Assembly: GCA_973895155.1 (NCBI GenBank)
Contig: OZ316896.1
Span: 3,448,738-3,512,737 of the forward strand
Direction: 5' to 3'
Origin: Marsupella aquatica
Taxonomy: Eukaryota; Plantae; Marchantiophyta
Length of the DNA stretch: 64,000 nucleotides
Below the pieces are notes generated by a model, which was not told the DNA's origin, did no database searches, and saw only the letters and a list, made by a program, of their open reading frames with translations. This document shows positions 1 to 47,100 of this stretch, piece after piece (positions within the stretch are counted from its first letter, which is position 1; the number at the start of each line of letters is the position of its first letter). The position numbers and the translations under genes were made by a program.

Positions 1-8
1 TGTTTGAG

Positions 9-6914: not shown

Positions 6915-7215
6915 AGCTTTATCTTTGTAATAATATACTTTTTTACAGACCAAAGTTCCGTCGTAGAATCTCCTTCCTCAAAGGATTTTGTTGGCATTCC
7001 CTCGGAAAGCGTTGCTGTGGAGGAAGGGTTTGACCCAGGTATACTTTGGATCTAAAAAATGGCAATTGAATGTAATTAATGTTTTTCTAGGAGGGTCGCC
7101 CCAGGGTCGTTCCTCTCTACTTCAAATGCTATAACAAAGTTTGTTTGATTTCAAATTTTGAGAGTTTTCCTCCGTAGTAATTGTTTAAACTTTGAGTCGC
7201 ATTGACTAAGGGCTT

Positions 7216-19115: not shown

Positions 19116-20258
19116 AGGTTTGTGGTACATAGTGTCTGATAGCTTTGATTAGAGGTACCACATAGTGTAGGCCAGTTAGAGCCTCATTTTGGTGTTTCAT
19201 GTAGCCGTCACCGGCCATATGGCTCTACTGCCTACCTAGGCCCATTGTGAAAACCTGATATTTAATTCAACCACTACCTTGCTTTGAGCATGCTCTTTGG
19301 ACCCTATTTTGTCAATCTCAGCCTGAACCCTAAACCTAAACCCCCAAATGATTCCCATGAATCCAATATTAAACCCCCACAAACCCTAAATATCCATTAT
19401 TAGTCAAGCCGGTGACCCAGCTCATATCCGATACCATACGCTACGGAACTTCCGAAGTAAACTATTTCGGACCCCTCCTCCCAAATGTCCGATATTTTCA
19501 GCATCGCAATTTGCATTACACACCACTACGGATGTCCCGATACATATTGCTACGCAAACTCCGATATGTTTTACATCGGACTATCCCATATAAAATACAT
19601 CGGACCCTTGATATTACCTTTTGGTGGGCCTATAGTATCCGATGAAATTAGAATCGGACACAAATTATCCGAAACATTCAGTAACGGATGTACCGATTGT
19701 ATCAGAAATGGAAATTCCGATGGATGTCCGATTGTCGATATCCAATGGGTGAAGTATGGGAAAGTGCGAAGTAAATCACATCGGACGGGTCATTTTTCTG
19801 CGTCAAAATTTCTGAAGGGGTCCGATGTTGTTAGGATCGGAAAAAGGGCCGAAAATGTACTAGTGTAAGGACTGCATTTTGTCTTCTCAATTTTGACTTG
19901 AGAATGGGACCGAGCCTTTCAGGACTGCGTGTTGCTTTCAGTGATGTATTGTTGCTGTGAATTTTGAGTGAGATTGAGTACTTTGCACAATTTACATTTT
20001 GACTTTGTTCATTGTTGTGTACTGAAAGAAGACGATTGCACAGATCAAGTAATAAAAAAAAGTCAGCATTTACGTTGGACAAAACTTTCCAGTTCACAAA
20101 CAGCTAGACCAAACAACAATCCATGGCTTTAATAGATGTAGGGCATTGACCTAACAGAATTTAAAAAGTTACTAGAATCATTCTTTGACAGCATCGCTCG
20201 GAGAGTCTATGTCATCATCAAAGACACCTTCAGGCAATTCAACCTGTTCATGCAAGTG

Positions 20259-21520: not shown

Positions 21521-21638
21521 TCGTGATGAAAATAATTGATATTAAGAGTACAATTTTGCAATCTTAAAATGCATGAACAAAATTCCACAATTAAATTTGG
21601 CAGGGACAAGAACAACAAAAGCACACTTTTGACCTCTT

Positions 21639-22340
21639 TGTTGAGTATAGACGACAATCGCAACGGCAAGCCCATGAACCATCCAACGTACAAGAGTTGA
21701 CATAGAGAGATACGTGGTTCACCTGCACATGAGGCTACGTCCATGAGAACACACAAGAGCTTTATTGCACTCTAGGCCGACCGGCCATACCAAGCATCCA
21801 TAGCACAGGCTCTCCCTATCTCTCAACTAGCTCCATAACAATGAGCCTTAGTCCCCAAAGAGGCTGGCATTAGCCCATGCTATATACACAACAACACTAG
21901 GTGGATTGCATGATTGAGGACTACCATTTTAGTCCTTTTTTCTCCATAAGAAAGGACTCCATGAGCACTTAATAGGATTCCATGAGCACTGAATGTGCCA
22001 TATATCCCTTGATGGCTAGGATTGAGTAGTTGAGATTGAAAGGTTAGATCTTGCATGCCAAGTCTTTTGGAAGTGTGTCCACACTTTTCGAAAGTCCTTA
22101 CCTCTTGGAAGTGTGCCCAACATTTGTGGAAGTGTGTCATGAAGTATTTTTTTACCTAAGATGCTAATCTTGGTCGTTGACAGTCCTTGGATTAGTGAAA
22201 GGACTGGAGACTTTTTTGCCTCCTTTGGTAGTTCTCAATCATGCAATCCACCACTACCGCTAACCTTAGCTAAGTCTCAACCCGAGTTAGCCTAACTATG
22301 GTTAGCTCATGAGTCACAAGACTAAGAGCAATACCTAACA
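21639..22340 (-). repeat. 3' LTR of copia-2 (contains a MITE)
   Basis: TGTTGAGTATAG...CCTAACA matches 41046-41573. Confidence 0.93.
21900..22252. mobile_element. MITE, 353 bp, ~26-bp TIR, 4-bp TSD ACTA
   Basis: GGTGGATTGCATGATTGAGGACTACCA ... TGGTAGTTCTCAATCATGCAATCCACC. ACTA on both sides. Absent from the sister LTR. Confidence 0.92.
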
Positions 22341-26863: not shown

Positions 26864-28968
26864 CTCTCTCTTCTTCCCAACTACCAACAGGTCTAGTAGT
26901 AGAACAGTTTTCTCCATTGCACGCCGCACCGGTGATCGTACCGGTGTTACTTGTTCCTCCTCAAATGGTATCAGCTCTTCCTCAGACTCTCCGTTTAACT
27001 GTTGCAAACCTAAAGCTCCACCGACGTCAATTCTTCCAGTATTCTCCGAGTCACTCTGAATATGAGAAAATCATGAAAAAATGTCTTTTTTCAAAAATTC
27101 TCATAAAACTCAAAATTTAACACCGCCGCGTAGCCCACAAAGCTAGGAGTCCAACGTTGAAAGTCAAAATCAAAATTGAAAATTGACGGAAAAGTTATTC
27201 AAATTTTGGTTGGGGTGGGTAAAATCTTGGGAAACTCCCCCGTTTTAACCACCTTAGGGAATAACCAAAATACCTAGTATAACCCGTCATCGGAATTGAG
27301 ATTTGATTGGTGCGCCGCATTGCTAACTTGAATGGCTACGACCTCGCCAAAAAAGAACCAAAATAATTATTGTTTGGCGCACAGAATCTTTGTTGGATGG
27401 CCAAAAAAAAGCTCTATGTTTTTTGGGAATAATCCTGCACAGTTTGACAGGGCTCAAAGGGGGCCGGTCCCCCTGTCAAAGCGGTTAAAATGGAGGGCGG
27501 CATGTCCCGGCACAAGGGAGAACCAATAAGAGGGAAAAAAAGGTAAAAAGTGGGCCGTAAAGGGGGTGTTTAAGCCTCTTACCAAAAGGTGGTATAAATG
27601 GTCAGGGATACATAGTGGGCGAGGAGTAGGGGGCATAAAGGGGGTGGCGTGCGTGCAGCTACAGCTACGTATGCAGTTGGATACAGGGTGGCGGGGCATA
27701 CCATCTCCGTGCGTTGGAGAGGGGCGCCAGCAGGAGGCGGTCGCAAAGGGGCAGGGCATGGCAGGGCCGATCGGAGGGAGAAACCAGCCCCTGGTGAGCG
27801 CACGGTCACGCGTAAGCGCCGGCCGGCGCTCGTGACCAGCCGAAGGGAGAAACGGGGGTGAAAATGGGGGAGTATCGGGGGAAACACGCTGACCAACCAA
27901 ACAAGAAGTGTGACGACCAAACGAGAAGTGTGTTTTGATTTTCGCAAAAAAATGGCAAAAAATATCTTAAATTGATATCAAAAACACAAATTCTTAGATA
28001 TATGCAAAATTGGATCCAACATCAAATTCCAAATTGAGATACTTTTTGACAAAAAATGGAAAATCACTAAAATCTTGGATTTTAGAACAATTGATCCCAA
28101 AAATATTTGTCAAACAGAAAACCCATAAAACAATGATTTTCAAGTCCTATTTCCGCACACTAAATCAATTCGCCCGGAAAAACTTGAATAACACAAATCT
28201 CCATTTGACAAGCAAATCATTCAAACCCAAAATGGGATACGCCGTATCCCGTTTTAGATTCATCCGTTGAAAATCAAACAAAAACACGCTAAGTTGATCA
28301 TTTGGGGCCTTTAGTTATCATATCGGCTAAACTAGATTTGAATGTTTATCAAAGGTAAAACGATGTATTGCATAAACTTTACTAGCGACCACGGTTGACC
28401 AACGCAGTCAATTAAGTTAACTCAAGTAGATGGTTGGACATATTGTAGACCGTTTATTTCCCAACCGCCAACCTCCATCTAACAAATTAGAGATATGAAT
28501 ACCAACAAGGATCCATGGATCCCATTTTATTTCCCAAGTCCAAAAAGAACTTAGCCAAAAGTCGGGGTGAATACGAAATGGGATCCACGGATCCCATTTG
28601 GTATTCACCCTTCCAAATTTGCCATTGTCGAACCCCCGCGTTGCTAAATCAACGTTTGAATACCAATCGGGATCCATGGATCCCATTGTCCGATCCAACT
28701 CAAGAAACAAACAATTTTGGAATACTCTTTTCTCTCAAAGATCAATTTTCTTCTCGTTTAAAGATTTGTACGGACCAATGAATGGAAGCCACGTGGACAC
28801 ATTCCCAAAAACTATATAAGAACAAGCTTGCATATGATTCTGTCTTCAGTTTTTACAACTCATTTTAGGTTCTCAAATAGTGAGTCTCTATTTTCCTAGA
28901 TTGGAGTCACCGGAACGTTCCACTCCCCATAGGAATCCTTAGTCTTATAGAACCTTGATACTATCTCA

Positions 28969-31900
28969 ATGGCGTCTTCAGGTGACAAGTCTATTTACAG
29001 TTCTGATGCATCTTTGCCAGATGTTGTTCGCAAATTCATTCCATCTCGTTTGATGAAGGAGCTTCCAGTTTCACAAAGAGTTTTGTCAGAGATGTCATTT
29101 TCATCAGATTCAGAGAGTTCAGGGTCTGATTCCGAGTCTGGGAGAAGTGTTGTTGGAGCTCCAACATCTTATTATGTTTCTCCAAGTAAACCACTTATAC
29201 AACATTTGCTTGGGAGAAAAGCCACTGTCATACCCTTAGGTCAGACTAGCTCACCGCAAACCCCTCCAGATGCACCCAAATGTCGGCCTCAGTTTCTAAT
29301 GCCAAGAACAATGTTGCCATGTAGGCCCGCCAAGAGATCTCCTCTAGTTTTCCCGATGTCGCGTCCTCTTGGAGTCCAGATAGCTTTGTCTAGTGTGCAA
29401 TCGTAGTTTGAGCGAATGAGAAGTTCGACGGTGCTAGAAGTGTCGGCCGCACGAAGAATATCCAGAGGGATCCCTACTCGAAGTTTGTGGAATGGAGAGC
29501 GGGAATTGCCAATTTCATCTCCTTCGCTACCAAATTCCATTAGTGGAATACCAAGTGGGATCCGTGGATCCCATTTGGTATTCCCTCCTGGAATTTTACT
29601 AAATGGCGAGCCAAAATTGCAAATCGAGCAACCTTCGCCTACTGATTTGGTGGGAGGAATGCAAAATGGGATCCGTGGATCCCACTTGGTATCCCCTCCT
29701 GGAATTTTACCAAATGTTGAGCCCGAATTGCGAAGCAATCAAACTTCGTTAGTCGCTTTGGGCGGAGGAATGAGACAAGGGATCCGTGGATCCCACTTTG
29801 TTTTACCCAATGGAAAATTGTCAAGCGCTGCCATAGAACCACAAGTGGGGCAGCTCTCACTTTGAAGTCCAAGTGGACGAATACGAGTTGGGATCCACGG
29901 ATCCCATTCTGTGTTCCCATCGGTGATTTTGCCTAGTGGTCAATCAAACGTCAACTTTGGGCTTCGAAGCCCTTTGGCTTGAATGCAGTGTGAGGTTGCT
30001 GGATCTTTGGTAGCCCTTTGGCTTGAATGCAGCATTTGTGATCTCCTTCCTCCCTTTTGATCAAGTGTCACAAATGCTGCAGGTGTCCATCAAATTCCTC
30101 ACAGATTGTTGCGAAGTGCGTTGCCACAAACTTGCCCAAAAAATTCAAGGCTAGAGGAAAATTGAAGGTTGTTCAGAGACTATTCAATGGTCAGGATGAT
30201 CCGTCTAGTCGAGAGACACCAAGGCAAGGAGTACATTCTCAGAGACAAGTGGGGAATACTCATGTAGAAGCAAGGAATATCGGTAGAAGATTTCAGAGAA
30301 GAAATCTTCGGGTACCAATTTCTTTTCCAGAAGAATCTAAAGAAGAATCAGAGGTACCAGCCAATGCCGGGGAGATGCCATAGGGACTGTTGAAATCTCA
30401 AATATTGTTAAAGAGGTCCTTGGTCGCGAGAGTGCTCACGAACCAGTCTTAGAAAGTGTAGAGAGTGAAAGTAATACCGGAGAAGATCAAGATACTTTTG
30501 TTTTAAGTTCAATGAGTCCCATGGAAAGTAGTGGAGGAGTGAATTCTCCCGACACAATACAGGATAGAGTAGAGGTGAGAAGACCAAGCAAAAAAATTAG
30601 AGACCAGATGATTTGTAAAGATAGGCTTATCAATACGAACTTGAAAAAACAAAAAATTAAAGATATTTTTAAGTATTCCTGTTGTGACAAGTTTTGCTTG
30701 AGGTCTTTAGGTCTAGAAGAATGTTGGAAACAATGTAAGTATTATTTTGGTCTCTCACACTCACAAAAAAGCATTCTTTTGCGAGGATGTATTATGAGTA
30801 ATTATAATACTTCCCGTGGATATAGTGTGAATGGACAAACTATTTGTAGAGGAGGTTCAAGAAACTATATTCCATAGGGAATAATAGGCTACAATCCATG
30901 CAAACATGTTCACCAGGATTGAACGAGATACATTTTGTAAGGAAGACTCGCCTTCATTTCTCAACTTGGTGGAATGGTTGAAAGATTTCTTTCAAAAAAA
31001 CATGGATAGTCTTCCCCATAAAGAAATTCATCACTTGCCAGACAATTAGACAAAGCAAGAGATTCATGAAATCTTTCTCGCCGAAACAATCTTGCGGGAA
31101 GAGCAATATGTTACATATTCTTATTTCTTGCGCATTTGGAAGAAGAAGTTTTCAAATGTTTGGATTCCCAAAAGGAGTCGTTTTTCCACTTGTTGTCCAT
31201 GTACCGAATTCAAGGCTCTTCGAGACAAAGCAACGACAGAAGAAGATAAAAGTAAGTTCATTGTAACCTTACATTTGTGTCTAACTAAGATAGTGATAAG
31301 TTAGACACAATGATGAATAGATAATTTATTGATTACGCATGATTGTATTATTGCAAGAAAGTATATCAACGCTCTTATGGAGCATCGAAGAGTACAATCA
31401 CTCGAGAGGATGAAGTTGGCAAAGCATCGAAAGAAATGCTATGATGAACCCAACAAGTATTTGGGTATTTGTATTGACGGTATGGATCAAAAGAAAACTG
31501 AGCTACCACATTTTATTCGATGTCCAAAGAACATGGATGAGAAATATTTCATCCCTATACATGTTGTGGGTTGTCTTATCTTTAATAGAAAGCTTGCGGC
31601 AAAGTTTTTCTAACTTACCCCAACATCCACAATGATGCAAATCTCACCATTCATGTTATTCAAAATATTTTGAATACATGGGATGGGATATTGCCACGGG
31701 TATTATATCTTCAATTGGATAATACCACTAGGGAGAACAAGAATAAGTTCTTGATGGCTTATCTACACATGTTGGTAGATTTAAAGGTTTTTGACAAGAT
31801 AAAAGTTGGCTTTTTGTTGGTTGGTCATATGCATGACCAAATAGATCAGATGTTTAGCAAGTTCTCATCTAGATTAAATAAGCATAAAGCATTTTGCTTA

Positions 31901-32952
31901 GATACTCTTGTGGATATTCTACAACGGACATATTCTCCTCAAGCAGATGTAATTTTTGTGGATGAAGTTGTGGACTTCAGAAAATTTGTGAATGAGACCG
32001 ACCAACCAAATGACAACAGAGTTTCAGGTCGAGTTTTGAGAGATCTCAACCTCATAACTTTTCAAAGACAATTCAGATTCAAGCGAGGCATTGTAGATGA
32101 CAACGAAGTGACCATGTTTCATGGGAAACATCTATCTACAACCTTTGATTGGGGAGACGTGGTAGCATTTGTCAACTACATCCCCACTTCAAGAATGTGG
32201 GTTGTAGCACAAATGTCACTAAAGTCAGCAAAAGGTGTTGAACGGGATGATGATTTGATGGACTCAAATGGTGCATTATCCATTCTGGTGAAATATCAAA
32301 AAGCAATTCAAGAGGGATTCAATTACTTTGACGATGAAGATAAACTATGGTGGATGACATTCTTTGAGAAGCAAATGATGTTATCAAAAACCACTTAGAG
32401 GAGGGTGAGTGGTTATTTGAATGGGTTTGGCCACAACAAAATGAAAGGCGTGGACTTGGTGGTGTGTCAAAAAATCAGATTTCGAAGTTCGAAGATGTTG
32501 ACCCAACTCTAGTTGATAAGGTTGTAGGACCACAGAGGATTATTTACTCAGGTCCTCGGCGAAAGCAACCTGAACTTGGAGATTTCAAAGATATGAAAGT
32601 GAACAACAAATGGTCAATGATATGCGTAGCAGCACACAAAGATCCAGAAGGCAAGTTATTTTGGATGGCAAAGGTGTCAAAGATTTTGACAAAAAGAGAA
32701 AACATTCCGGAAAGAATCAAAATCACGTGGTACACAACTGAGGCAAGTGCTGAGACTGCAATTGATGGAAAATATTTTCCAGAAAAAGATAATGTATCTA
32801 ATAGACTTTGTCAAGATGAACTTGTTTTGTCGTCAACAGCAATATATGCATACAATTTTGCGCTTTTGACAAATAACCAAATAGTAGCAAAAACAAAGAA
32901 GATTATAGAGGCTGCTATTTTAGAGCGAGGTTCTGTATCTTCAGAAGATTGA
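28969..32952 (+). pseudogene. DDD/E transposase, Sola-like (DUF7869-type), frameshifted, with a repetitive N-terminus and a Tudor/PWWP-like C-terminal segment
   Basis: YSCCDKFCL, WKKKF..V.IPKRSRFSTCCPC, ICIDGMDQ, LYLQLDNTTRENKN and FLLVGHMHDQIDQMFS motifs. FWMAKV...ITWY in 32464-32952. Probable intron near 31251-31356. Confidence 0.75.
29557..29905 (+). repeat. Four 16-bp palindromes GGGATCC-NN-GGATCCC at a 111-bp period
   Basis: Starts at 29557, 29668, 29779, 29890. The first three are read in frame as GIRGSH in ORF 29416-29865. Confidence 0.9.
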
Positions 32953-32966
32953 GTTTCATTTACTAA

Positions 32967-33926
32967 TTAGACTAGTAATGCTGATACATGCATTAATTTA
33001 ATAACTCTATCTCTGATCACCTTTCGCAAGTGGCATGCTTGGGTGGGGTTGTACCAATCTCTTGTAAATAAAGACTCTGCGGATATAGATTTTGAATTAT
33101 TCCATTGAACTCTAATTTGATCCATGTTGTGTAGGACAAATAAACCACAATCTGTGGTATTTGGTTGTTGTGGCACCTGAAAAAAACATGGTGTATTTTA
33201 GTATAATTCATAAATATGTTTTTCAACCCAAAAAGAATTAAAAATCAAATAAATCACATACCTTTGGATTCCATATCTCCATAACACCCAATGACACTTT
33301 TCCAAAAAATAGTTCCCATTCTATTGTGAAATATCTGCAAGTCATTGAAAGCGATTCCTTAGTCAGTAGCATTTATAATCACATGAATTAAATAATCTCA
33401 TTTGAAAAACAAATAGTAGAAGATAAAGTTAAGTCTTTCACCTTTTCAGTGCCGATTCAATTACACAAGTTTCATGTAGACCAACAAGTGAGTCTAGATG
33501 ATACATTTGGATCAAAGATTGAGATCGATCCAAACATATGACAACCAAACTCCAATGGCCACTCATGTGAATTGGCATAAGAATAACCTCAATCTTGGAA
33601 AACGGTGGCTTGTAATAAGCTCGCATTTTCTATAAAGATTCTTTAAGGGATTCATGTGTTGGTTCTTTTTCAATCCTTGAAACCATCCAAGGATAAAAAA
33701 AGGAGGATAACGTGTTTACCATTGGAGCAAGATCTCCCTGTTCTTCTATTTGGGACTTTGGGTAAAATTCCATAATTTTGTCACCCAAATATTGGTCGGG
33801 TTCAAGTTGTTCCAATGTTTCTTGATTGAGGAGATGACCAACAAAAGGATTGTGCAAAAATCTATGAAGAACACTTTTCAATTCAATAACCTCCTTTGAT
33901 GGATCCTGCAAGGACATTATTGTCAC
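32967..33926 (-). pseudogene. Ulp1/SENP (C48) SUMO-protease domain; last exons of the cargo gene
   Basis: YLGDKIMEFY, LSSFFY, MPIHMSGHWSLVVI, YHLDSL, PQQPNTTDCGLFVL give an intact H-D-(Q)-C set. GT/AG introns near 33441/33336 and 33262/33176. In-frame TAG at 33630. Confidence 0.88.
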
Positions 33927-34236
33927 ATAAGACTTAACATATAAATCTATTTCAATATTTCCGGAAGTTCATATACATTTTGGGGGAAATCTCAATTGCA
34001 GCAAACTAATCTCAAAATAATCTCTACACCTCAAGGAATGAGCCAAGATCTAATGCCGGAGCTTCTGCTTCCTCTTCCTCCTACTCCTCGTCTTCATCTG
34101 CATCATCATCATTCTCGGCCGTGGTTGTAATGATGCAAGGTCCGGTGGTGAGAGTGCTTGTCATACCACCAATCGGTGGTTGTATCTCAAAACTCATCGG
34201 CCCTGTACCCTCCTCAATTGCTTCCTCATTCAAGTC

Positions 34237-35145
34237 TCATGATTCATCTAGCGTGACTAGTCGAGTCTGGATACAGTCTATCTGTTGAGCACTCAACTCC
34301 ACAGCTGTAACATGTCGCTTTGCCAATGAAGCCCCACACGAAGTGGACCCACTTCCGGCGCATAAATCAGCAATCCAATCTCCTTCTTCACTAAAATGCT
34401 TGATGAACCAATCTGCAAGGGCTATCGGCTTCTGGTACGGATTCACTATGTCCCCTAAGGGTGTTACACATTTTTTGGTAACGCAAGGTACCTTGATGAT
34501 GTTGATTCTTTTCTCATCATGCTCAAAATTGTACATTTCCCTGGTCCTGATACCACCTTCATTATAATATCCAATGGACCAGTTCTCAAACGCCCAAGCT
34601 AGCCTATTCCCGGAGGGGTGTGCATGTACATTTGGCTTCTCCCAAATTCCTGCCTCAACTCCAGCGTTGCAAGTCTTTCCCAAAGCATTCAAAACGGAGA
34701 CACTTTGTTGCAACGAATGAATAACAACAAACCTCCACATAGGTGAAGTAGTCACCTTAGCAAAACATTTCACCATATCAATAATATCTTTCTCCAAAAA
34801 TGGAACTTCATCATTCTCAGAGCCGACGGCATTGAATCCATAAGGAATGTCGGCGATTACAAGTGTGTAAGGCCGTTTCTCCAAGAACCTATCAAGCGCC
34901 TGGACATCTCCACAGTGGAGAGTATAGTTGATGAAATTTCCATCAGAATTTTTCCAACGGTGGTCACTTGATTTTGCTTGAACAATGTCGATGCCAATCC
35001 GACAATTATAATTCTCAATAGCTTCCTGAACCATATTCTTAAAACCAGGGGGGATAATATCGGAACTAAGCTCCTCCTCTACCGTCTCCTCGCCATCATT
35101 TGACACTTGAACCATTTTGTTCTTCTTCTTCAAGAAGGCTTTCAA
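34237..35145 (-). CDS. Beta-class N6-adenine/N4-cytosine DNA methyltransferase domain (exon of the cargo gene)
   Basis: LHCGD, VIADIPYG (DPPY-like motif IV), IWEKP, NPYQKP, then EGDWIADLCAGSGST...VTAVE (motif I). This is the beta permutation order. AG acceptor at 35147-46. Confidence 0.88.
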   Translation of the reverse strand: MKAFLKKKNKMVQVSNDGEETVEEELSSDIIPPGFKNMVQEAIENYNCRIGIDIVQAKSSDHRWKNSDGNFINYTLHCGDVQALDRFLEKRPYTLVIADIPYGFNAVGSENDEVPFLEKDIIDMVKCFAKVTTSPMWRFVVIHSLQQSVSVLNALGKTCNAGVEAGIWEKPNVHAHPSGNRLAWAFENWSIGYYNEGGIRTREMYNFEHDEKRINIIKVPCVTKKCVTPLGDIVNPYQKPIALADWFIKHFSEEGDWIADLCAGSGSTSCGASLAKRHVTAVELSAQQIDCIQTRLVTLDES

Positions 35146-35510
35146 CTACAAAACATCAAGGCACCAGTCAGAGTTAAATGATAAAACTATGCATTGAATA
35201 CCAAGAGGGATACCAAGTATCCCATTTGGTATCCGACTAAATAAATCCGGTGAATCATGCTTCTAACCCTCAAACTCCAACTTGAATCCCGAATGGGATA
35301 CGGGGTATCCCATTTCGGATTCCACCTAGGGAAAATCAAAGGAACAACACTAACATAGCCAAACCAGGGATACCTAGAGAAAAAGAAAGAAACAACTTGA
35401 ATAGAGCCAAAATTGATTGTGAATCCCAAATGGGATACACGTATCCATTTTTGAATTCAACCTTTGAAAACACAAAATGAAAACATCCAATGCAAGCTGA
35501 ATCAACTTAC

Positions 35511-36443
35511 CACATCCGAGAGTTTGCCACTCCATCTTTCGAGCTCCGCAGACTGGGTCTCCTTGGGAAACATCTGTTTACAAGTCGCCAGACAATTGCA
35601 CAATTGCACAAACAGTTTACTAATCTTCACAAGCTTCTTGTAACTTTTGGCCTCTTTGGCCATCTGCTCTAGACTGATCATTCGATCCTTAACTCGAAGG
35701 AGAAGGGATTCCAAAAACCGGTCCTGCTCAATCCCTTGGATCCCTCTCCAAGGTGTCAACGCTAGCCCATTTGCTAGCTTGTTCAAAGGTTTCACAATGG
35801 GCATGGCCTTTTGCTTGGACCCTTTTTTCACTATTTTCACAGGGGATTTTTGTTTGTTCTGCCCTTTGATCTCAAATCTGTTCCACATGTCAAAGATCTG
35901 GTCTTGGAGGTCCCAAACTTTTCCAGATCTAAATGATATCTGGAAATGTGGTTCGTGCTTCTTCAATGTTTTCCCAACCCCTAGAATGAAGCCATCAAGA
36001 CACACCTCCGAAGCACAGGCCTCTCTAGTCTCTTTCATTTTTTGCATACCTCTGGCAATGAAGACCTTATGCATTGTTCGGATTTGATCGATATTGTTCA
36101 TCTTTTTCTGATAATCCTGGTCAATATTGTGTTGAATACTGAGTTTCTGGACGTCAGCCCTTGTAAGCCCTGCATAGACCCAGGCTTGAAGTTTGTTGAA
36201 GATTTCCCGACCATAAGCCTCAAACAATTCTCTCTTGGCTAGCGCTCCGTGATTACCCCCAATTACCCGGTATCTCCAGGTCGATGCCTTGGCCGGGTCC
36301 CAATCTTCAACGGACGGACAATCTTCAGGGATAACAAACAGCACAAATGGCGTCGTGAAATTTGTTGGATTCAGCTTCATCAAAGTCTTGATATTTTTTA
36401 CGTGCAAACGATCAACAGTCTGAAACCAACGTGGAGTTTTCAT
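35511..36443 (-). CDS. ParB/Srx-like domain exon, spliced in frame to the MTase exon
   Basis: VD..HV..IK..M, PFVLFV, YRVIGGNHGALA (ParB 'y.vidG.HR..A'-like), AWVY, L...HN. Donor GTG|GTAAG at 35511/35510 is phase 0, matching acceptor 35145. Confidence 0.65.
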
Positions 36444-36522
36444 CCTTCATGTCATCGACCAGGAGGAGGTTTGTTGTTTTTAGAATGACTGTGGTCTTCT
36501 GAACTCTTTTTGTCTCCATTAA

Positions 36523-37467
36523 TCAAGACACTTCTTCCCTTAGAACTGACGTCTCTTCACGTTGTAGGGCTGTAGTCAGTTCATTCGTTGAATCTTCCTT
36601 GCTCTCAACAATCATCGGACCCTTCCCCTTGGATGCGACGGATGGCCCACCTTGTGAAGTTGGAGGAATCTCACCTACCGATCTCAAAGGTAAAGGAGGA
36701 GCTGTTGACACTACTCTCTTCTGGATTTCTCGTCGATCCAACTTAGTCTTCTCTTTGGCAGGATCTTCTGAGACAGTGGCACCTGATCCTTCCCCAGATT
36801 TTCCAACAGATGTTGCTGGTGCTTTCTTCTTGTTCTTTGGCTCGGAAACTGCCTTCTCTTTTGTTGTGGTTGTCTCCGAATCCTCCACTGTCCCAGACGG
36901 ATTAGTTGGCCTGTGTATCTTCAACTTCAATGGAGTTCTTTCCGGACCCTTAAAGTCTTCTCCAACCACTGAGCGATACACAATTCTGGTGAAGTCCTGC
37001 ACGACCTTCCACAACGTTAAGGCATAATTCAAGCACCAAAAACAAAATGTATCCACATCAGGCACCTCCGCCACAAGCTGAGTGATTGAGTCCTCTGGAA
37101 ATGTATTCATGGAGACTCGATCAAGTTTCTCATAGTTCAAAACCAACATAGAGAAGGTCTTGTCAACACCAATGTAAAGAAACATTGGTACCATCTTAAC
37201 TTTCTTGGTTTTTGTATCAACGATGTCCGCCTTGGCTGTGTCAATCACCAATCCTTGGTGGCAATGCTTTTTACCCTTCATGACAATCAACCATAACGCT
37301 GCCCAGCCTGAATATGCTCGATGAAGATCAAGCTCACGAGCATCACGCAAATACCACTTGTTCCTGAGGAATTTCTCCTCAACATAGAGATCTTTTTTCC
37401 AGATCTCATTGATGATGGCTTGTCGGGAAGAGCCAGAAGAACCCAAAGCACTTGACTTGTTCGACAT
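36523..37467 (-). CDS. N-terminal segment of the cargo gene (unknown domain plus K/S/T-rich linker), separated from the ParB part by a stop and a frameshift
   Basis: 314-codon ORF, collinear with and just upstream of the ParB-like ORF. Confidence 0.55.
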   Translation of the reverse strand: MSNKSSALGSSGSSRQAIINEIWKKDLYVEEKFLRNKWYLRDARELDLHRAYSGWAALWLIVMKGKKHCHQGLVIDTAKADIVDTKTKKVKMVPMFLYIGVDKTFSMLVLNYEKLDRVSMNTFPEDSITQLVAEVPDVDTFCFWCLNYALTLWKVVQDFTRIVYRSVVGEDFKGPERTPLKLKIHRPTNPSGTVEDSETTTTKEKAVSEPKNKKKAPATSVGKSGEGSGATVSEDPAKEKTKLDRREIQKRVVSTAPPLPLRSVGEIPPTSQGGPSVASKGKGPMIVESKEDSTNELTTALQREETSVLREEVS

Positions 37468-37546
37468 TTTGCGTAGAATAAACCACCTGTTAGAATTTCA
37501 AGCCTCATATGGTCCAATTAGGCAACAAGTCCATAATCCAATGTGT

Positions 37547-37945
37547 GAATGCAAGATGGGATACACGGTATCCCTCTTCGTATCCAACCGCTCCTATTTC
37601 GGCTCTTTCAGAGAGAAAGCATGAAATCTTGGAGATGAATGCGAAATGGGATACCGCGTATCCCACTTCGTATCCAACCGCTCCTATTCCAACTCTTTCA
37701 TAGAGAAAGCATGAAATCTGGGAGATGAATCGGAAGTGGGATACCGCGTATCCCACTTCCGATTCAACCCCTTAGTTGCGCTGAGAAATATGAAAACCTT
37801 TGAAGATTTTCATGTTGAATGCAAAGTGGGATACAGGGTATCCCACTTCGTATTCATCCCCAAATCTCAGTGCGTTTTCCTTCTCAAACAAGAATTTGGC
37901 CAAAGTGAATGCGAAGTGGGATACGCGGTATCCCACTTCGGATTC
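37547..37945. repeat. Five-unit, 90-bp-period array of a ~39-bp palindrome GAATGCGAAGTGGGATAC-NNN-GTATCCCACTTCGNATTC
   Basis: GGGATAC cores start at 37558, 37648, 37738, 37828, 37918. Confidence 0.92.
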
Positions 37946-38709
37946 ATCCTCCCAATTTGTCTCAAAATGGAGTGTAGACTGTATTCTCACCTAGTGAAGG
38001 ATTGTCTGCCGAGCGAATACAAATGTCTATAGATATCAAGGATTTGGAAAGAGTGAGAGGTGGCGCAAGCGATAAGAAATGAGCGTACCTTTTCGGGGGG
38101 GGGGCACTCTTATTTATACTTTTTCCCCTCACTACGTAACAAGGGTCGGAGTTAGTTACTCGCAATAGTCGTATGAAATACTCAAGGCAAATCTAGACTT
38201 ATGCATTACGACCATTTCATTTTACCATGTTTGAAGAATGTTTTACGGAAAAATATAGTGGGGTAATCCGATATGGGATACCCTCATTCGGATGCTATTG
38301 GCAACGAGAAACTAAAGGTTTGGAAGCCAGCCAGGGCAATATGTTGAGAATCTGAGTTTGGCCCAAAGATGTGCCACAAAAGATAGTAAATATTGATTCA
38401 TGAAAAAAAAATTTACAAGTAGCTCACCATGAGCACACATAAACATGAATGATAGAACATGAATCAAGCTAACCCTCAAGTCTGTCCATATATTTCCACT
38501 AGGCTGGCTTGCTGATCTTTCTCTAGATTTACCTAGTCCCTTTGAAATCGACTTAGTTCTGATGTCGAAAACAAACCAAGGAAATCAATTGAGGGAAGAT
38601 TCGAAATTTCCATCCTAAAAAAGTTTGCGAGATGAACATTCTGAAGAGGGTCTCCATGGGGAACGCTATCAAGCAATTCATTTAATCCCTCAAACTGGCT
38701 TCGTGCTAG

Positions 38710-39036
38710 TCAAAGGAGACCCCATACTCGTGTACAAACTACAAGTTGGTTCCATTTTTTTGAGGAGGATCCCAGCCAAATCATTTCTTTTAGTCGGCTG
38801 AGTCTGTCTTCAGCGGAGATCTTGGAAGAATCAAATTCATCCTCGATGCAAGAAACTTTCAAAATTGGCCATATGAATGTTTCAACAATCTCATTAGGAA
38901 GTCCATCCAAAAGTAGTCCGGATTCTCTTTGGCCCTGTTTCTGCTCAATTTGTTTCTTCTTCTCTTTCTCAAATATGGTCGCTAACCTTCCGAAGATAAG
39001 GTTTTGAGGGATGGCCATTCCAAACCAGTTTGACAC
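38710..39036 (-). CDS. F-box-like small ORF (probably truncated)
   Basis: LLDGLPNEIVETFIWPIL ... LGSSSKKWNQLV matches the F-box LP.EI...I / L..V.K.W..L pattern. Confidence 0.55.
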   Translation of the reverse strand: MSNWFGMAIPQNLIFGRLATIFEKEKKKQIEQKQGQRESGLLLDGLPNEIVETFIWPILKVSCIEDEFDSSKISAEDRLSRLKEMIWLGSSSKKWNQLVVCTRVWGLL

Positions 39037-39258
39037 AAAAAAAGAAATACCTCGAGTGATAGAGAAAATGGAGAAGTTCTCTTTTTGAAGAACCTACAAA
39101 ACCGGGATCAAAAGATTCAATTACTTTATTTCTTTGATCAAAAGAAAAACATCATGTCTAAATCTTTGTGAGCCAAGAATACTGAACAAGACTCCAAATA
39201 TTTGTGAGCCAAGAATCAAAAAGATTCAATGGGAAGAGTTAACCCAAGGATCTTCGTT

Positions 39259-39582
39259 TCAAATTCGACAACACAAGTATGCCAATCGATGATACTTGTT
39301 TTGATCATCACGACAATAATTACACGAAGAATCAACAGAATGCAGACAACCACTCAAATAAATTCTTGACCGAATTGGAACTCCTTGCTCATTCTTTTTG
39401 CAAAACTCAATTTGGAGCGGATTGAGACTATCTCGAGGATCTACGCCTCCCATCCAAAGCGCTCCTAATCCAACAGGAAGCACTTTGAGTTCAACTAATC
39501 TCTTATACAATCGATGGGCACGTTTATCTTGGTTTTGAATCTGGATTGTCATTGAACTCACGGTTGAAAATGTAAGTCTCAA
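39259..39582 (-). CDS. Small Cys/His-containing ORF of unknown function, inside the element
   Basis: 107-codon ORF with C.H....C..C...CC; no family recognised. Confidence 0.3.
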   Translation of the reverse strand: MRLTFSTVSSMTIQIQNQDKRAHRLYKRLVELKVLPVGLGALWMGGVDPRDSLNPLQIEFCKKNEQGVPIRSRIYLSGCLHSVDSSCNYCRDDQNKYHRLAYLCCRI

Positions 39583-41045
39583 AGAAAGCTAAAGCTTTAA
39601 TAGTTTGTCACTCCAAAATGGCGGGCTCGAAGGAAGCAAGAGCTTTTGTCAAAGTTGATTAGAACCTAGCCTGCAAAACCATCACCAATACTTGAGATAT
39701 CTTTTGCCATCGCAAAAAAGCTATTGCTGAATACCCAAAGGGATACGCCGTATCCCACTTCGCATTCAAACTTTGCCTTTCGGACCTAACCTGATTGATA
39801 TTCAGAGGTTGAATACCATATGGGATACCGGGTATCCCACTTCGCATTCAACATTGAAATTTCCTGCATTTTCAACCAAGAGCTTCTTAGTATGTAGAGG
39901 TTGGATGCGAAGTGGGATACCGGGTATCCCACTTGGCATACCTATTTATAGTTTCCCCCCGACCATGGTCAGTTTCTAACCATAGTTTCGTCGTAGTCAA
40001 TTAAAAGTGACCATTAAAAGGAATCCTCTAGGAATATTCTTGATGGGTAAACTGTACTCACCCCTTTTACTGCGTTTGTTGGTTTTTTTTTTGAAAATTG
40101 CGGTGGGATCCGAAATGGGATACGCCGTATCCCTGCTTCGGATTCAAGTCATTTTTTCCCGTTTTAAAAATAAAAAATCTGGGTTATTAGAGGGAATACT
40201 AATTCAGTATCCAACACATTTTTCCTTTTGAATTTTTTTCCGCTGCGGGCAAAACGAGAAGTCCGTCACTATGTTGGGAGTATGAGGGGGGGCGGGTGTG
40301 TGTATACACACACAAGGCACAAATGACCCCCTTAAAACGGAAAAAATAACCCTAAAGCAAAAAATTCCGAATTCTCACCTGACCAGCCGCGATTTACATG
40401 AAGAAAAAAATGATCGCCAATGGGTAAAGTGCCAAAATTTCACCGAGAAGGTCTGCTAGCTCCATAGTGGAAAAACTTTCTGTCGTGTCACACTCACTCC
40501 ACGTCAAGTGCCAATCCCAGACTCAAAACAACCCCCTCGCCGCGATCAAACCGTTGAGCTATAGCACTTCACGTTTCTTTCTCCGAGTTGGTCGTCACAA
40601 AGAGAAACCCGATTCAGATGGGAACAAGCTCCATAGCTTGTGAAAAAACCTGAACGCTTCCTTCACTCGTCACGACGCACTCGGTAACAACTTGACAGCA
40701 ATTCAGCTACCAAAATGATCAGCTTGCTTCAACCTCCAACTTGAGCTACAACATGCGACACCTCCCGCACTGCACAGCTCACACCATTGAAAACACAAAC
40801 TCTGTTCTCTCCCTAGAAAAACCGTCGAACATGTATAAATACGATGCAAACTGTGATTCCTTCGCACCATGGATACCGCTCAGCGAGTTCTAACCACCGT
40901 TAGAGAGCCCTCTCACTAGCCTATCCGCTCAGCCACACACATTCAAGTTTCATGCAACGAAACTCCAAATGTAACACCAACAATGAACGCTAGAAAACTG
41001 TCACGAAAAAACCTCATCACCTCCCAGACATGCTCTGATACCAAT

Positions 41046-41573
41046 TGTTGAGTATAGATGACAATCGCAACGGCGAGCCCATGAACCATCCAACGTACAA
41101 GAGTCGACACAGAGAGATACGTGGTTCACCTCCACATGAGGCTACGTCCACAGGAACACACAAGAGCTTTACTGCACTTTAGGCCGACCGGCCATACCAA
41201 GCATCCACAACACAAGCTCTCACTATCTTTCAACTAGCTCCGTAACAATGAGCCTTAGTCCCCAAAGAGGCTGGCATCAGCTCAGGCTATATACACAACA
41301 GCACTACTGCTAACCTTTTATTATTTTTTTAATTTTAATTTTTTAAAAGGAGAAATCTGTGAAACCCCACAGAAAGGGAAGAGTCAACCACAATAGTTGG
41401 GAAGTGTCAGCCACAACAGTTGAACCCAAGACCTATCAGTCTCAATTCAAGTGAGCTACCATAAAGTCATGCCTCTCTGGGCAGCACTACTGCTAACCTT
41501 AGGTAAGTCCTAACCCGAGTTAGCCTAACTATGGTTAGCTCGTGAGTCACAAGACTAAGAGCAATACCTAACA
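41046..41573 (-). repeat. 5' LTR of copia-2 (contains a SINE)
   Basis: Matches 21639-22340; adjacent PBS GCTCTGATACCA. Confidence 0.93.
41318..41481 (-). mobile_element. tRNA-derived SINE, 164 bp, 19-bp TSD
   Basis: TSD CAGCACTACTGCTAACCTT at 41299-41317 and 41482-41500. A-rich tail on the minus strand. A-box-like TGACTTTATGG and B-box-like GGTTCAACT. Confidence 0.8.
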
Positions 41574-44169
41574 CTCTCCATTGGCATATTCATGAGTACG
41601 TTGGTCTTCTTTGTCAAACATTCCTTCTGCCTCAATTTCTTTGTACAAATCATGGCTCTCACTTGACAAAATTTCTCTAGGTTCCATGATTCAATGTTGC
41701 TATGTGCGCCTGTATGAGCGTCTTCCAAAGTTGAACAAAAATGAACAGGTGAAGTTTGATTTTTCTATTTTTTGGCTATAGTACATCTCAGTCTATGTAT
41801 GGGTCCATAAACAAAAAGACTTGTTTGCTGAAGCTCTCTTGTGTTTGGCGCTTGAAGATACACCATTGATTGAAAGAAAGGATAAGCTAAGTTTCGATAT
41901 ATCTTCTCCTGCATGCTCAATCACATATTTACTCCCCGTGAAATTTGGGAGCTATCAAACAACTTTCTGTCTTTTCTGTGTCCCATCCCTCAAAGTGGGT
42001 GTTGTTAACTTTACATGAGGCTGGGCACGTTTGCTCCAGCCTGGTAGTATGTTTCCCGGGTTTATTAATTTTAGATAATGAAGTGGCCCCTGGTGTTGCT
42101 TTGGAAGAGGAGAGACTGAACTGCCCTCACGGTTTTGTGAAGCCCCCCTCGGAATACAGACATACCATCAGCGTCAGGTTTTGGAAGACTTAAAGAACTC
42201 AAAACATCACACATATCATCATTGATTTTGTCCAAAAGGGGAAATGTACACATGCAGTACTAAGGCAAGTAGGACAAGCAAAATTTGCCAAGATGGGCCC
42301 CACTCTATGGGCCTGCGTATGCAGGGAGAGAGAACATTAATTGATAAAGGGAGAGGTCAAACAGAGAACTCTAAGCGCATGTCTATGAAGGAAGAAAAGA
42401 ACGTCAGTAGATACTGGGAGACTGGGAATTACTCTGTGTTTGAATGAGTATTTATAAAGTTTCAATGGTTTGCTTGTTTTTTGGGGTCCACTAAAAGTGT
42501 CGCCTAACCTAAACCTGCAATTTCTAACCCTGTACACCTGATATCCGTGGTACTTTACACAAAAAAATGTATTCTTTACTTATAAATATAGGAAATGAAG
42601 TATGATGTATATAACATTTTATGTGGGTATTTGATTTAGGGGTTGTTTTTAAAGAAGTTTTTACAAGGAACAATGTTGTATCCCAAAGTTGTCCAGAGAG
42701 CGAGAGACAAGCTTCCCCCTCTTCTCCTGGTGCTCCTCTTGTGCAGTGCAAATAGGTCAAAAACTCTCCTACTCTGGTGATGACAGTATGATAGACAGTG
42801 TGGAGTTCTTAAATGTTTTAGTGTACGTAATCATCAAGTCAGAGAACTTACTCACGTTTTTGTTCAGATTTTGCCCAATCAAGATATATGTTCAGATTGA
42901 TAACCTGCATGGCATGATGCGATATTGCGAGGACTTACTGACCTTGTATGCCATCCTTGGTTTTACTATAGTGGAGCTTGTTCCTTGGTTCTATCCGGTC
43001 CCAGTTGAATTGACATCACTGTAGAACCCTCGTATCTTCTCCTTTTCTACTTTCATGGATGGGGTTGTACATAAAGCAGCGTTTGATTTACATCAATGAT
43101 TAGTCAACAACGTTTCTCCCTCAGTCTGCCAGGAGACGGGATGCCAGGCTTAATTTCATTGGCGTTTGCTATCCTGATATATAAGAGTGGCAGAAAGTGT
43201 CATTATATTTGAATGAAAGGTCGAATATATGTAAGTGGTTCTAATTAATTTTGTGCGAACCCAGTTTTTCTTTCTGGCAATTGTTGGTAGACATGTGACA
43301 CGCTCTCGAACCTTCTCCCTAGAATTTCATGTATGTTTTTCATAGAGCTTTTCATGCTGCAATTTTTGAGAGGTGGGGATGACATCTGCAAATTGAAGTC
43401 AAGAAGATGCCAGAACACTTCATGTTCTCAGCTTTCAAGTTGGTTTTCTCTCGTTTAGGCCGTGCTACTGTGAAGGCTTGAGTCAAGCTATCGAAAATTT
43501 ATGACTTTGCAATCCATCAAAGTTGCACTAAAGTTAGCATGCATCCGCTTTCAAGGGAATTCCGTGTGTGCACTTTTCCATTATCATCTCACGGCCTTCG
43601 CGAAATTTTGTTGGACAGCAAGTAGTTCATGTGTGATGTTGACACTTCATGTTTACTTTGTTTCTCTGACCGACATGTGTTCCAGACTGGAGACTTTTTG
43701 GATGTAGCAATTTATCGCTAAGCCCCACACATTGATTCTCATCAATACATGTCACGATTCAACAGATTTACGTCGGTTGATTTGTCGCTCTGGTGATACG
43801 CTTTGCGCTTGTAGTAGCGTTAGTATGTTAAAGCTATTTGATCCGTTCTGGGAGCCCAGTACAACAATTTCAAATGAAGTGCAATTGTACCTGCTCTGAA
43901 CAGTTGTTGGTATTCTTCTTATCAGCAAAATTATACCCTGGCTATAATTCGATCAGTTCGTTCATGTAACTGTCCTGCGTTCTACTCTGAGGATCTTTTG
44001 TTTAATATAACAGACTTTTGCTCATTGGGTGAGTGTTTGTTTCAACACTCCCTTGCACCAGGCAATAGTTTGGTCTGAAATTTAATTTTGTTACTAGCTA
44101 CCTGTTTGCGAAATTTCGGGAAGAAGAAGGGACAAACGAGAGGACAGAAGGAAAAGACAGAGAACTCAT

Positions 44170-47100
44170 TAGAGGAGTGCGATTTCTTAGACTTGGAGGA
44201 AGATCCCAGTCTCTGTGGAAGCAAGATTCACTCACCTAGCTTGCAGACACTTCCCTGAATTGGTCGACAGTTTCAGGACGGGAAGCATAGAGGCCAAAAA
44301 TTGCTGAGATTCAACTGAACTAAAATTGCTCTCTCATAGTGATTTGGAATTAATGATCTTTTCGTTTGCCCGTCCCGCTGAACTGCATTAAACATGAAAG
44401 CTAGAGCCGGAGAACTCTTATCGGAGTACTTGAGTCGTCTCCTATACTGCTCGCCCAACTTCAATGTTCGCAACTGTTTTCACGGGCTACGATGAGACGT
44501 CCTCCTTCAACTGTACAAGTACATAGGTCACGACGACCCACGATCAGATCCCAAAAGCTTTCGTGAACGTCGCCGATGACTTTCTAAAACTTTCGAACAA
44601 CGAACGTACAGTTATACCTTCCCAGATCGCAATCCCAGTTAATTCGTTGCTTCGTTCCATATTTCAACTCCTTTCTGTCCAAGAACAAAGCAAACTCGAA
44701 AGTAACCTCTTGGCGGCCGTTCAGGCCGAGCCACATGTAATTTCCGGAAGTCAGAGAGAACTTACTTTCGACCTTGTGAATGCGTCTCTATAATTACGCG
44801 GCGTACCTAGACCACGTCGTTGCATTGCAAAAGATCGATGACCGTGAACTAAAGTGAATCTCAAATGTGACCGCTTTTTCTTTGATTCAGCCAGGAACGT
44901 GACAGAGGCACGAATTGACAGTTCTATCTTCCCAGATCTCAATCTCAGTTGGTTGCTTCGTTCCATCATTCCTTTCTATCCAAGAGCAAAGCAAAATCGA
45001 AAGTAACCTAGCTAGCTCTGGTGGCCGTTCAGGCCGAGCAGTATTTCATTTTCCGGAGAGAGGTAATTAACTTTTCCGACCTAATTGTGAATGTGTCCTG
45101 CCTATCACGTGGCGAGCATTTCAAGGACGTTTCGATCGAGGTTCCGATCACTCAAAATTCACCACGTCGTTGCCAAAGGATGAATGTGAACTAAAGTGAA
45201 TCTCAAATGAACGATCGCTTTTTCTTGGATTTAACGAATAATTAACGTGAGCCCCATTCCCTGGACAAAATGGGGAGATTACATTCTAACAAGCATATAT
45301 CGGGGTAACAAGCATCGGGCCACAAAAGGAAAGATTTCGTAGTCAGAGTACAGAGCGGAAGATACGAACCCCTGAAGTCCTCCGATCTCCGAGAAAATAT
45401 TCTCAGAATTTAGACCAACTGGCTCTAGTCAGTTGGCTAATCATTAGCCTGGAACTCAGAGGTCCTAGGTTTACCCTCCCCTTCACACACAGGGACACAA
45501 AACTCCTCTTCCTCGTATCTGTTCAAGAAAAAAGGACAGATATAGTTTGAGTCTCCGTGCATTTATGAGACGACAAATATCTATCGAGACCGCTAACGAC
45601 CATGTTTGTCTATCACTTTTGTTCATGAACTTGGGTATAAGGAGAAAAGGCAGACTTGAGAACCAACATAACAGGAAAGCCACAGCTGGAAAAAGGCAGC
45701 CCGGGCGAATATTGAGAAGAGGATCGTGGCAGGTCGCACTCGAATTGTCTGGAAAGCGTCAACAAACTGGATCATGGCATTAGTTTACACCAGAAATCAC
45801 GTAGATTCTCGCTAAAGCAAAAAGCGCGCGATGCCGGGGCGTGGTTCGGACTCCAGGAATGTTTAAAAGCCGCAGCACTTCGACAGGGAAGCTCATCGAT
45901 CTCAAGCTCAGTCCCAGCACAGTAGCCATATATCGCACCCTGTCACCTGAGGATCTAGTAAGTACTTAAACCTTACTACGGATCTACTCCAGCATCGCTA
46001 CTGTACACCGGGATTGAACGCCAAGTCTCTCTCGATCTCTTCCTCTCGCTACTCGCTAGCTCCATCCAATCAATCGTCCAATGGCCTACCGCGGGACGCT
46101 GCTATCTCTCCTGCTCGTGGCACTTGCGGCAGGCGTGGTCATAGATGGTGTGAACGGCGACTCTTCGTTTGTCCGGCGCCGACTGGCTGGACAGGAGACT
46201 GGTGTGCCAGGTGCAGCGTCCACTAACTGCCTTATTCCATGCCTATCGCCCTTCTCCTGCTGCAAACTTCCAAACACCGGAATTCTCCCAGGCCTTTGCA
46301 TTAACACCGGGACCGACCCGTTGAACTGCGGAATCTGCGGTAATGTTTGCCCTCTCGGTTCAATTTGCTGCAAAGGTAAGTGCACGAATTTGCTCAACGA
46401 CCCCAACAACTGTGGAGGTTGCGGCGACAAGTTCAAGTGCCCATTGAAGGACGTATGCAAGTTTGGCATGTGCAAGTATGCAGCATAGGCTCGCAGGATG
46501 CATCCAAGCTGCAGCGTGGGTTCATAGACTACGTGTACCGAGCAGGAAAAGATTCGAACAAAGTTGGAGCTGTGTCGCGTCGATGAAGCTGTAAGGGTGG
46601 TACAAATACCAATAAATGGTCACGGGACGACATGGCAAGAAGGGCAGCTAGAACTATCAAATTAAACCTGAAGTAGGGCATGAGTCAGATCATTTTCTAC
46701 AATTAGGCGATATGACAATGAAAGCTAGCGATTTAGTCATCAGTGGATAAGGCAGTCACAAGTTTCCCACCAGGCCATATGTAGACGAGTTGTATGAGTA
46801 AATTCTCATGAATAACGATACGTAAGAATCCGGTCGCTGTTTGGCAATGAATCAATGAATCCTTGATTTACTAGAAGACAGTTCCTGTGTCCCAGCTCGT
46901 TTGTTCAATGCAGTCAGCTACATTGACTGACGATTGAATGATTGATAAACTGCACGCGAATTTGTGTGTAGGGGTAGAAGTAAGATATGGCCTCTTCTGC
47001 ATTCTGCTCAGCCTTGCGATTTGCCGCTAGCATGATACCTGTCCAACTCGTCAATAAAGTATGAAATCTGATTCCCTTGTCTGACTCTACGCTGAGTTCT

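Follow-up and report, generated by a model that had tools for sequence, protein, structure and literature searches.

We analyzed a 64-kb window of contig OZ316896.1 of Marsupella aquatica (Marchantiophyta), the whole stretch of DNA to which the coordinates below refer unless a locus or accession is named. At 27883-40275 the window contains a Sola1-like DNA transposon of 12,393 bp, a decayed copy of a multicopy family. The element carries a transposase gene, a gene encoding a fusion of a ParB-like domain with a methyltransferase, and 20 copies of a long palindrome that may serve as docking sites for this fusion protein.

The left end of the element, at 27883, is fixed independently by contigs of other family copies, which begin aligning there; the right end, at 40275, rests on this single copy. 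Ends were sought by combining left starts at 27879-27891 with right ends at 40150-40520, given a duplication of at least 3 bases and matching termini, and two pairs were returned. The retained pair has AACA...TGTT termini, with 10 of 15 terminal bases inverted, and a 4-bp target duplication, GGGA, at 27879-27882 and 40276-40279. On the resemblance of its termini and duplication to those of Sola1-1_Ec32, we classify the element as Sola1-like. The other pair (27885/40469, with a GAAA duplication) was rejected: 5/15 of its terminal bases match, and the alignment of its end regions scores at shuffle level (67 versus 75 +/- 10). A contig joint at 27497-40471 was also rejected, as it belongs to another Copia copy. 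No long terminal inverted repeat (TIR) was found in alignments of the end regions. The word AAACRAGAAGT matches the window at three places only, none more than 50 bp from an end of the element (two copies at 27899-27929 on the plus strand and a third at 40252); unlike the palindromes, these are candidates for the end sites of the transposase. The insertion site is the 5' leader of a minus-strand Copia element, whose long terminal repeats (LTRs) match at 41045-41306 and 21638-21899. All 30 bins of the region are covered in 4/4 DNA runs from two studies, and most of the contigs are 90-99% alike or less, so that the element in the window is one copy of a family.

The transposase gene (DUF7869; PF25273, E 9e-42) occupies 28970-32952 on the plus strand and is broken by stops and frameshifts. 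Its conserved part spans about 30575-32922, while the 5' part is without homologue. We found 68 relatives, the named ones in Ceratopteris, Riccia and Chara; none appeared in viral-contig scans, and the transposase profile has no match among solved structures. The DUF7869 domain has invariant aspartates, which may resemble the Sola motifs. No paper tying DUF7869 to a transposon superfamily was found in the literature searched.

On the minus strand, 32970-37467 forms one long ParB-methyltransferase gene, which in this copy has stops and a frameshift. It encodes, in order, an N-terminal domain and linker with no family assigned (37467-36523), a ParB-like domain with a helical region (36446-35511), a beta-class amino-methyltransferase with the motif DIPY (35145-34240; PF01555, E 2e-8) followed by an acidic linker, and a Ulp1/C48 protease (33629-33441 and an exon below 33177; E 2e-9). 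A preliminary description of this DNA had taken the first of these parts for a separate cargo gene. In other family copies the frame stays open across the stops at 36523 and 34237, and in L002, one of the related loci described below, the same N-terminal domain precedes the ParB exon; the supposed cargo gene is therefore the start of the ParB-methyltransferase reading frame. For the N-terminal domain, a word-index search was empty, Atlas scores stayed under 0.9, the profile did not match the N-termini of two other groups, and the predicted model has a pLDDT (predicted local distance difference test) of 47. A word-index search with the methyltransferase returned nothing among longer proteins.

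The introns, promoters and TATA boxes of the element were read from sequence signals only. A phase-0 intron is predicted at 35146-35510 (minus strand), between the ParB and methyltransferase exons, with a GTAAGT donor and a TTTTGTAG acceptor that keep the frame; contigs of 4 runs contain an extra repeat within this intron. Splice signals also predict a 5'-leader intron of the same gene at 37487-37990 (minus strand), with a TATA box at 38118-38112. Fragments of open reading frames (ORFs) at 38710-39588 (minus strand), with a TATA box at 39950-39943, may represent a third gene. They have no Pfam match above cut-off; 38713-38916 is presumably F-box-like, a resemblance for which Pfam gives no support.

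The consensus GGGATMC-N2/3-GKATCCC has 18 strict matches in the window, all at 28234-40133, and no strict match in 100 dinucleotide shuffles of the window. Relaxing the core by one base per side brings the number to 20, the added copies at 28508 and 35432 each being one base off the strict form; the earlier count of about 20 thus holds. No copy occurs in the other 51.6 kb of the window, beyond the element. The palindromes had earlier not been seen outside the TIRs: all window copies do lie inside the element, but its TIRs are short and imperfect. The two versions proposed earlier are both present and separated in space. The 16-bp form (GGATCC, N2) has seven copies, confined to 28508-29905; the 17-bp form (GATAC) has 13, at 28234 and 35207-40133, with N3 in 12 of them and N2 in one (35432).

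Most copies adjoin TATA boxes or fall in predicted introns, and 16/20 are outside any reading frame assigned to a gene. A 17-bp-form copy occupies a subterminal position on the left (28222-28262, core 28234-28250), and another on the right (40105-40145, core 40117-40133) shares a 20-bp identity with the copy at 28230. Three 16-bp-form palindromes at 28496-28696 (cores 28508, 28580 and 28669) are just upstream of a TATA box at 28813, which would place this array at the transposase promoter. Four more copies of this form, spaced by 111 bp at 29545-29917, are in the transposase gene, within the 5' part that is not conserved. They had been assigned to the transposase ORF, which is not established: they lie upstream of the transposase homology, which starts near 30575, and differences among the repeats by codon position (78/87/115, from six non-independent pairs) show a weak third-position bias. 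The three copies reported in the ParB-methyltransferase intron (35207, 35295 and 35432) are at the expected positions, in the intron predicted from splice signals. Five 17-bp-form palindromes spaced by 90 bp at 37558-37934 fall in the predicted leader intron, and three (39740, 39822 and 39914, within 39728-39942) immediately follow the TATA box at 39950 on the minus strand. The positions first listed are correct, except that 39739 should read 39740.

The conserved unit is longer than the 7-bp arms first described. Alignment of 40 arms gives an 18-bp half-site, GRATVCVAARTGGGATMC, made of two similar hexamers 12 bp apart, so that the full palindrome is a bipartite unit of 38-39 bp with 18-bp arms and a 2- or 3-bp spacer. 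Tandem duplications of 90 and 111 bp produced several of the copies; the flanks between units diverge, and the motif itself is kept. Agreement at the variable positions is no higher between the two arms of one copy than between arms from different copies (126 matches versus 124.6 +/- 4.3 permuted, p=0.42), and a within-cluster test of covariation in the window gives p=0.57. Each arm thus follows the consensus independently, which fits recognition by a protein rather than a selected hairpin. This supports a protein site in terms of sequence, and the initial suggestion of binding by a dimeric protein gains support in the form of a symmetric binder.

The best candidate for such a binder is the ParB-methyltransferase itself. 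The ParB-like region has no Pfam sequence match. An AlphaFold model of 35505-36446 (mean pLDDT 78) retrieved in Foldseek only ParB/Spo0J/Noc/KorB chains among the first 17 matches listed (best E 3.7e-3). In a VIA comparison, whose top matches likewise all belong to the ParB family, KorB (8qa9) aligns with the model over 187 residues, model residues 4-279 to KorB 64-259, with Z 7.8 and a root-mean-square deviation (rmsd) of 4.1; the Spo0J-parS chain 4umk aligns with model residues 116-274, the DNA-binding part, over 99 residues (Z 5.5, rmsd 4.5). The model is thus consistent, with middling scores, with a ParB N-terminal fold followed by a helical DNA-binding domain. An Atlas search with 35505-36446 returned ParB_N at 0.93 and DUF3723 at 0.94. 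The resemblance to fungal DUF3723 (0.94), together with that to unnamed sponge and mollusc clusters (0.97 and 0.95), hints at a family extending beyond plants and algae. A homodimer prediction gave a score of 0.01.

The methyltransferase has an intact S-adenosylmethionine (SAM)-binding motif, and its DIPY motif is D-x-P-Y in most relatives. The family profile matches adenine enzymes with E 1e-14 to 2e-12, versus 1e-5 for the rotifer enzyme N4CMT. The mark would be an exocyclic-amino methylation, more probably of N6-adenine than of N4-cytosine. A profile search with the methyltransferase yielded 655 relatives at E<=0.001, including proteins of Chara and Ginkgo that match the ParB and methyltransferase exons in the same order. 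Such relatives would point to a streptophyte as host, and probably to a land plant.

We compared the element with 80 related loci from one metagenome scan, 60 of which were subjected to a de novo palindrome test. The exact motif of the window is absent from all eukaryote-type loci of the 80. Those nearest to the element, L001-L003 and L010, at 53-58% identity in the methyltransferase, contain a homologous half-site, GAAtgcnngGAGCGAKAC-N2, and in L001-L003 the arrays are directly before the methyltransferase exon, the same place as in the window, at 55-58% protein identity. The Ulp1 protease is absent from L001. In a more remote group, AAYTCGATRC-N3 arrays precede the gene; that of L008 is between a TATA box and the first coding exon. 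Two other loci share an unrelated 38-bp palindrome, GGTCGATTGG-N3-AATCTGCAGATT-N3-CCAATCGACC, with six copies at about 83-bp spacing (L028:45-1430 and L044:29-390), in L028 inside an apparent intron. L002 and L006 each have two motif versions in different places, as in the window. In the de novo test, palindrome families of at least three were observed in 11 of the 60 loci, against at most two in shuffles; many of the remaining loci are short or confined to coding exons, and L007 has lost its upstream region. The two groups of relatives nearest to the element likewise show no arm covariation within arrays (p=0.65 and 0.63). A pooled covariation in the AAYTCGATRC group was discarded as an artefact of mixed families, gone within arrays. 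A tree of 16 ParB regions places the window sequence with L002/L003 (100/100), on a long branch, and the predicted helix-turn-helix segment is near-constant within the AAYTCGATRC group and differs between groups.

Fusions of this type also occur in phages. A near full-length match to L046, a ParB-methyltransferase fusion locus of 6.9 kb, is present in 55 phage records. In the three of these that we analyzed, the protein combines ParB_N with PF01555, and no transposase is annotated. The phage ParB-helix-turn-helix-methyltransferase fusions (for example, WBK39746 of OP947158) have the same domain order as the element protein. In OP947158 (L088) we observed 7-8 dispersed copies of a 25-bp palindrome, GCTATGTCCCAA-N-TTGGGACATAGC, against 1-2 in shuffles; copies are evenly spread, at 250, 2252, 7694, 15475, 23060, 29971, 37119 and 41282. 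The phage sites are thus dispersed singly, whereas the sites of the element form intronic arrays. Five AATTACATAATT-type palindromes in MF497422 (L086; 3160, 3183, 23224, 36989 and 42181, several of them between genes), a number close to that in shuffles, may represent repressor operators. Viral-contig scans returned stand-alone methyltransferases only, with no ParB fusion.

From the sequence and the structural model, we favor, with moderate confidence, the interpretation that the 20 palindromes are candidate docking sites of the element's own ParB-methyltransferase, through which the element would control its own genes. The ParB-helix-turn-helix region would recognize the palindrome as a symmetric dimer or a pair of dimers, and the bound protein would bring the methyltransferase and the small ubiquitin-like modifier (SUMO) protease to the promoters and introns of the element. 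The SUMO (Ulp1) protease might then act on chromatin proteins at these sites, and the result would be a family-specific marking or regulation of the element's own DNA and genes. By analogy with VANC and TnpA, the most likely role would be to keep the genes of the element expressed against host silencing; self-repression in the manner of KorB is a less likely alternative. The original proposal of binding sites for the element's own proteins is thus retained in part: the ParB-methyltransferase, with its ParB/KorB fold and palindrome versions that travel with the gene, is the best candidate, and the literal parS reading, with its cytidine triphosphate (CTP) clamp, is weakened by a bipartite unit of 38-39 bp instead of a compact 16 bp and by the replacement of the arginine CTP box.

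A number of observations weigh against this interpretation. The structural scores are middling, with all Z below 8 and no Foldseek E below 0.001. The CTP-binding boxes of ParB proteins, GxxRxxA and ENxxR, are visible in canonical form in the phage fusions, but in all aligned relatives of the element protein they are replaced by GGxH[G/S/T]xxA and HN (GGNHGALA and HN in the window), so that CTP-gated sliding cannot be assumed. L046 itself has no palindrome family, nor does the phage record PP438425, and in MF497422 a weaker palindrome reaches 3-4 copies, close to the shuffle level. No array is observed in the clade nearest the Ginkgo protein, where L037 alone has about 1 kb of upstream DNA. The arms of the L028/L044 palindrome covary within copies (p=0.003). 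The location of the 16-bp and 17-bp forms in separate places could mean two binders. The motif groups and protein groups are few and related, and their correspondence is therefore an agreement, not a test of co-evolution. Finally, CpG near the motifs, normalized to GpC, is not raised (0.74, 0.71 and 0.69), a measure uninformative as a proxy for 5-methylcytosine (5mC); raw CpG ratios are higher at the arrays, an effect that is gone after this normalization.

The transposase is the other binder to be considered: it might bind the palindromes, or the 16-bp form near its promoter alone, for end pairing or self-activation. Two copies are within 350 and 150 bp of the element ends, the 16-bp form is confined to the 5' region of the transposase gene, and a neighboring CACTA element has internal CCGA-N11-TCGG sites with no ParB gene seen. 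Sequence-specific activation by a transposase and by TnpA is also reported by Sasaki 2026 (bioRxiv 10.64898/2026.08.24.746577). Furthermore, the same transposase is linked to the gene in L001, L003 and L010, on the opposite, convergent strand, and diverges along with the methyltransferase, so that these loci cannot separate the two candidates, a further point against our preferred binder. However, 18/20 copies are internal, eight of them in predicted introns of the other gene, and both ends have the separate subterminal word AAACRAGAAGT. A related motif also adjoins ParB-methyltransferase genes on (short) contigs without a transposase match, and OP947158, a phage with the fusion but without an annotated transposase, has an analogous dispersed palindrome. 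We thus consider binding by the transposase rather unlikely, though well ahead of the remaining explanations. Alternatively, the palindrome could be nothing more than the catalytic target of the methyltransferase (GAT.C on each strand), with no need for ParB-type docking. The inner GA[T/G].C of both arms does contain the most conserved letters, in the window and in two relative groups, and the catalytic and SAM-binding motifs of the enzyme are conserved. This explanation is nevertheless improbable: targets of amino-methyltransferases are usually 4-8 bp, whereas the conserved unit is 38-39 bp and requires head-to-head spacing that does not vary; single GGATCC and GGATAC sites are scattered all through the window as well; and methyltransferase-only loci have no arrays, as illustrated by 14 prokaryotic loci fetched by the methyltransferase domain alone, in which palindrome families do not exceed two in 13 cases and an AT-rich trio is seen in one.

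That every unit can fold, and that several copies were made by the 90- and 111-bp tandem duplications, would suit DNA cruciforms, RNA stem-loops, or relics of a tiny repeat multiplied inside the element, as would the covarying arms of L028/L044 and the contigs that carry the unit with flanks not in the window. Yet covariation is absent in the window and in the two nearest groups, the motif is kept while inter-unit flanks diverge, and relatives whose proteins are 55-58% identical have their arrays at the same place in the intron; we give such structures or relics very little credence. Equally little goes to the idea that the palindromes are host transcription factor sites exploited by the element. 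The arrays at TATA boxes and first introns would be well placed for this, but the motif changes between families while the layout is kept, and the other 51.6 kb of the window contain no copy.

A broader scenario, which we put forward tentatively and as less probable than the docking interpretation itself, is that eukaryotic DNA transposons took over, as one unit, a ParB-methyltransferase of phage origin together with its operator palindrome, and that both then spread among streptophyte algae and land plants. The enzyme of each family would dock on its own arrays and write a non-5mC mark, likely N6-methyladenine (6mA), on promoters, thereby escaping silencing. Land plants would then have a DNA-marking system that is encoded by transposons and programmed by sequence. 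If true, this would be an anti-silencing route unrelated to VANC or TnpA, and would link these elements with an enzyme that is common in phages but has no known role. Should 6mA or N4-methylcytosine (4mC) be written at these sites, land plants would possess, in addition to 5mC, a DNA mark made by transposons. In any case, the element supplies a first concrete candidate DNA target for the proposed transposon self-marking system, and a defined 38-bp site in three related versions that match three protein groups lends itself to direct tests of binding, specificity and modification.

Other features of the window were also noted. At 3-1070 (plus strand), continuing at 7210-7863, is the tail end of another frame, N6/N4-methyltransferase-like but more distantly related (PF01555, E 0.01), possibly from another methyltransferase-carrying transposon. 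It is interrupted by a Copia at 1122-6914, with 147 bp of identical LTR sequence, and followed by an ORF for a NIF-type phosphatase (PF03031, E 1e-16). The CACTA element, at about 10057-19866, has a SET-domain cargo gene at 14136-15080 (PF00856) and 13 paired CCGA-N10/11-TCGG sites, which are subterminal as well as internal near gene starts. An inverted duplication of about 3.8 kb with 80% identity (43900-49170 and 58662-63276) flanks a nested LTR element; between its arms, the ORF at 57246-57974 is presumably germin-like.

The protein class has already been described in algal transposons, and we found no report of the candidate sites in the literature searched. Dinatale et al. 2025 (PMC12477816) describe a ParB-like/N4C-N6A methyltransferase accessory gene in Sola1-1_Ec32 of Ectocarpus, cite red and green algal cases, and propose binding and modification of the transposon by the protein it encodes; palindromes are not mentioned in the main text. 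The features of that system, a ParB-like domain, an N4C/N6A methyltransferase in the same protein and placement on the strand opposite the transposase, are all found in the window. As in Sola1-1_Ec32, the accessory gene belongs to a large DNA transposon with AAC...GTT-type termini and a 4-bp target duplication ending in A; the Ectocarpus element has AACCG...CGGTT ends and a duplication biased to end in A. The element differs from Sola1-1_Ec32 (21.5 kb, with a 282-bp imperfect TIR) in its land-plant type, its length of 12.4 kb and its short TIR (10/15), and in its extra N-terminal domain, its Ulp1 protease and the identification of candidate sites. Literature searches returned no description of palindromic sites for ParB-methyltransferase transposons, within a coverage that excludes Petroll et al. 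2025, a 2011 chapter cited alongside it and the original Sola paper. For active TIR elements surveyed across 1007 plant genomes (PMC12973397), the accessible text has no occurrence of ParB. Iyer et al. 2016 (PMC4738411) report ParB-linked adenine methyltransferases in algae and fungi and ParB-terminase loci.

Bacterial beta-class amino-methyltransferases of the PF01555 family are also found in eukaryotic genomes as N4CMT of bdelloid rotifers (PMC8885841) and MpDN4MT1 of Marchantia (bioRxiv 10.1101/2021.02.12.428880). According to these sources, both are host genes with an SPPY motif and make 4mC; the element enzyme, in contrast, is transposon-borne, has DIPY and is nearer to adenine enzymes in profile (1e-14 versus 1e-5). 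Among ParB proteins, KorB of plasmid RK2 is the best structural match to both ParB parts, and it also acts on dispersed operators that regulate genes of its own element. Its operator OB is 16 bp according to McLean et al. 2025 (PMC11790492), whereas the element has a 38-39 bp site, a changed CTP arginine box, a fusion to a methyltransferase and a protease, and no ParA-like gene seen. The parallel with the VANDAL/VANC anti-silencing systems of Arabidopsis, drawn at the outset, holds for the layout and sequence behavior of the sites. According to Hosaka et al. 2017 (PMC5735166), VANC motif arrays are found in upstream regions as well as introns, and vary along with the protein; the element likewise has dense, family-specific arrays with tandem duplication, a copy number that changes and, for each family, two variants of the motif. 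The parallel does not extend to the sites themselves, since VANC motifs are 8-9 bp in one orientation and those of the element are palindromes of 38-39 bp. The transposase also belongs to a different superfamily, and the candidate binder is a fusion of bacterial-type enzymes.

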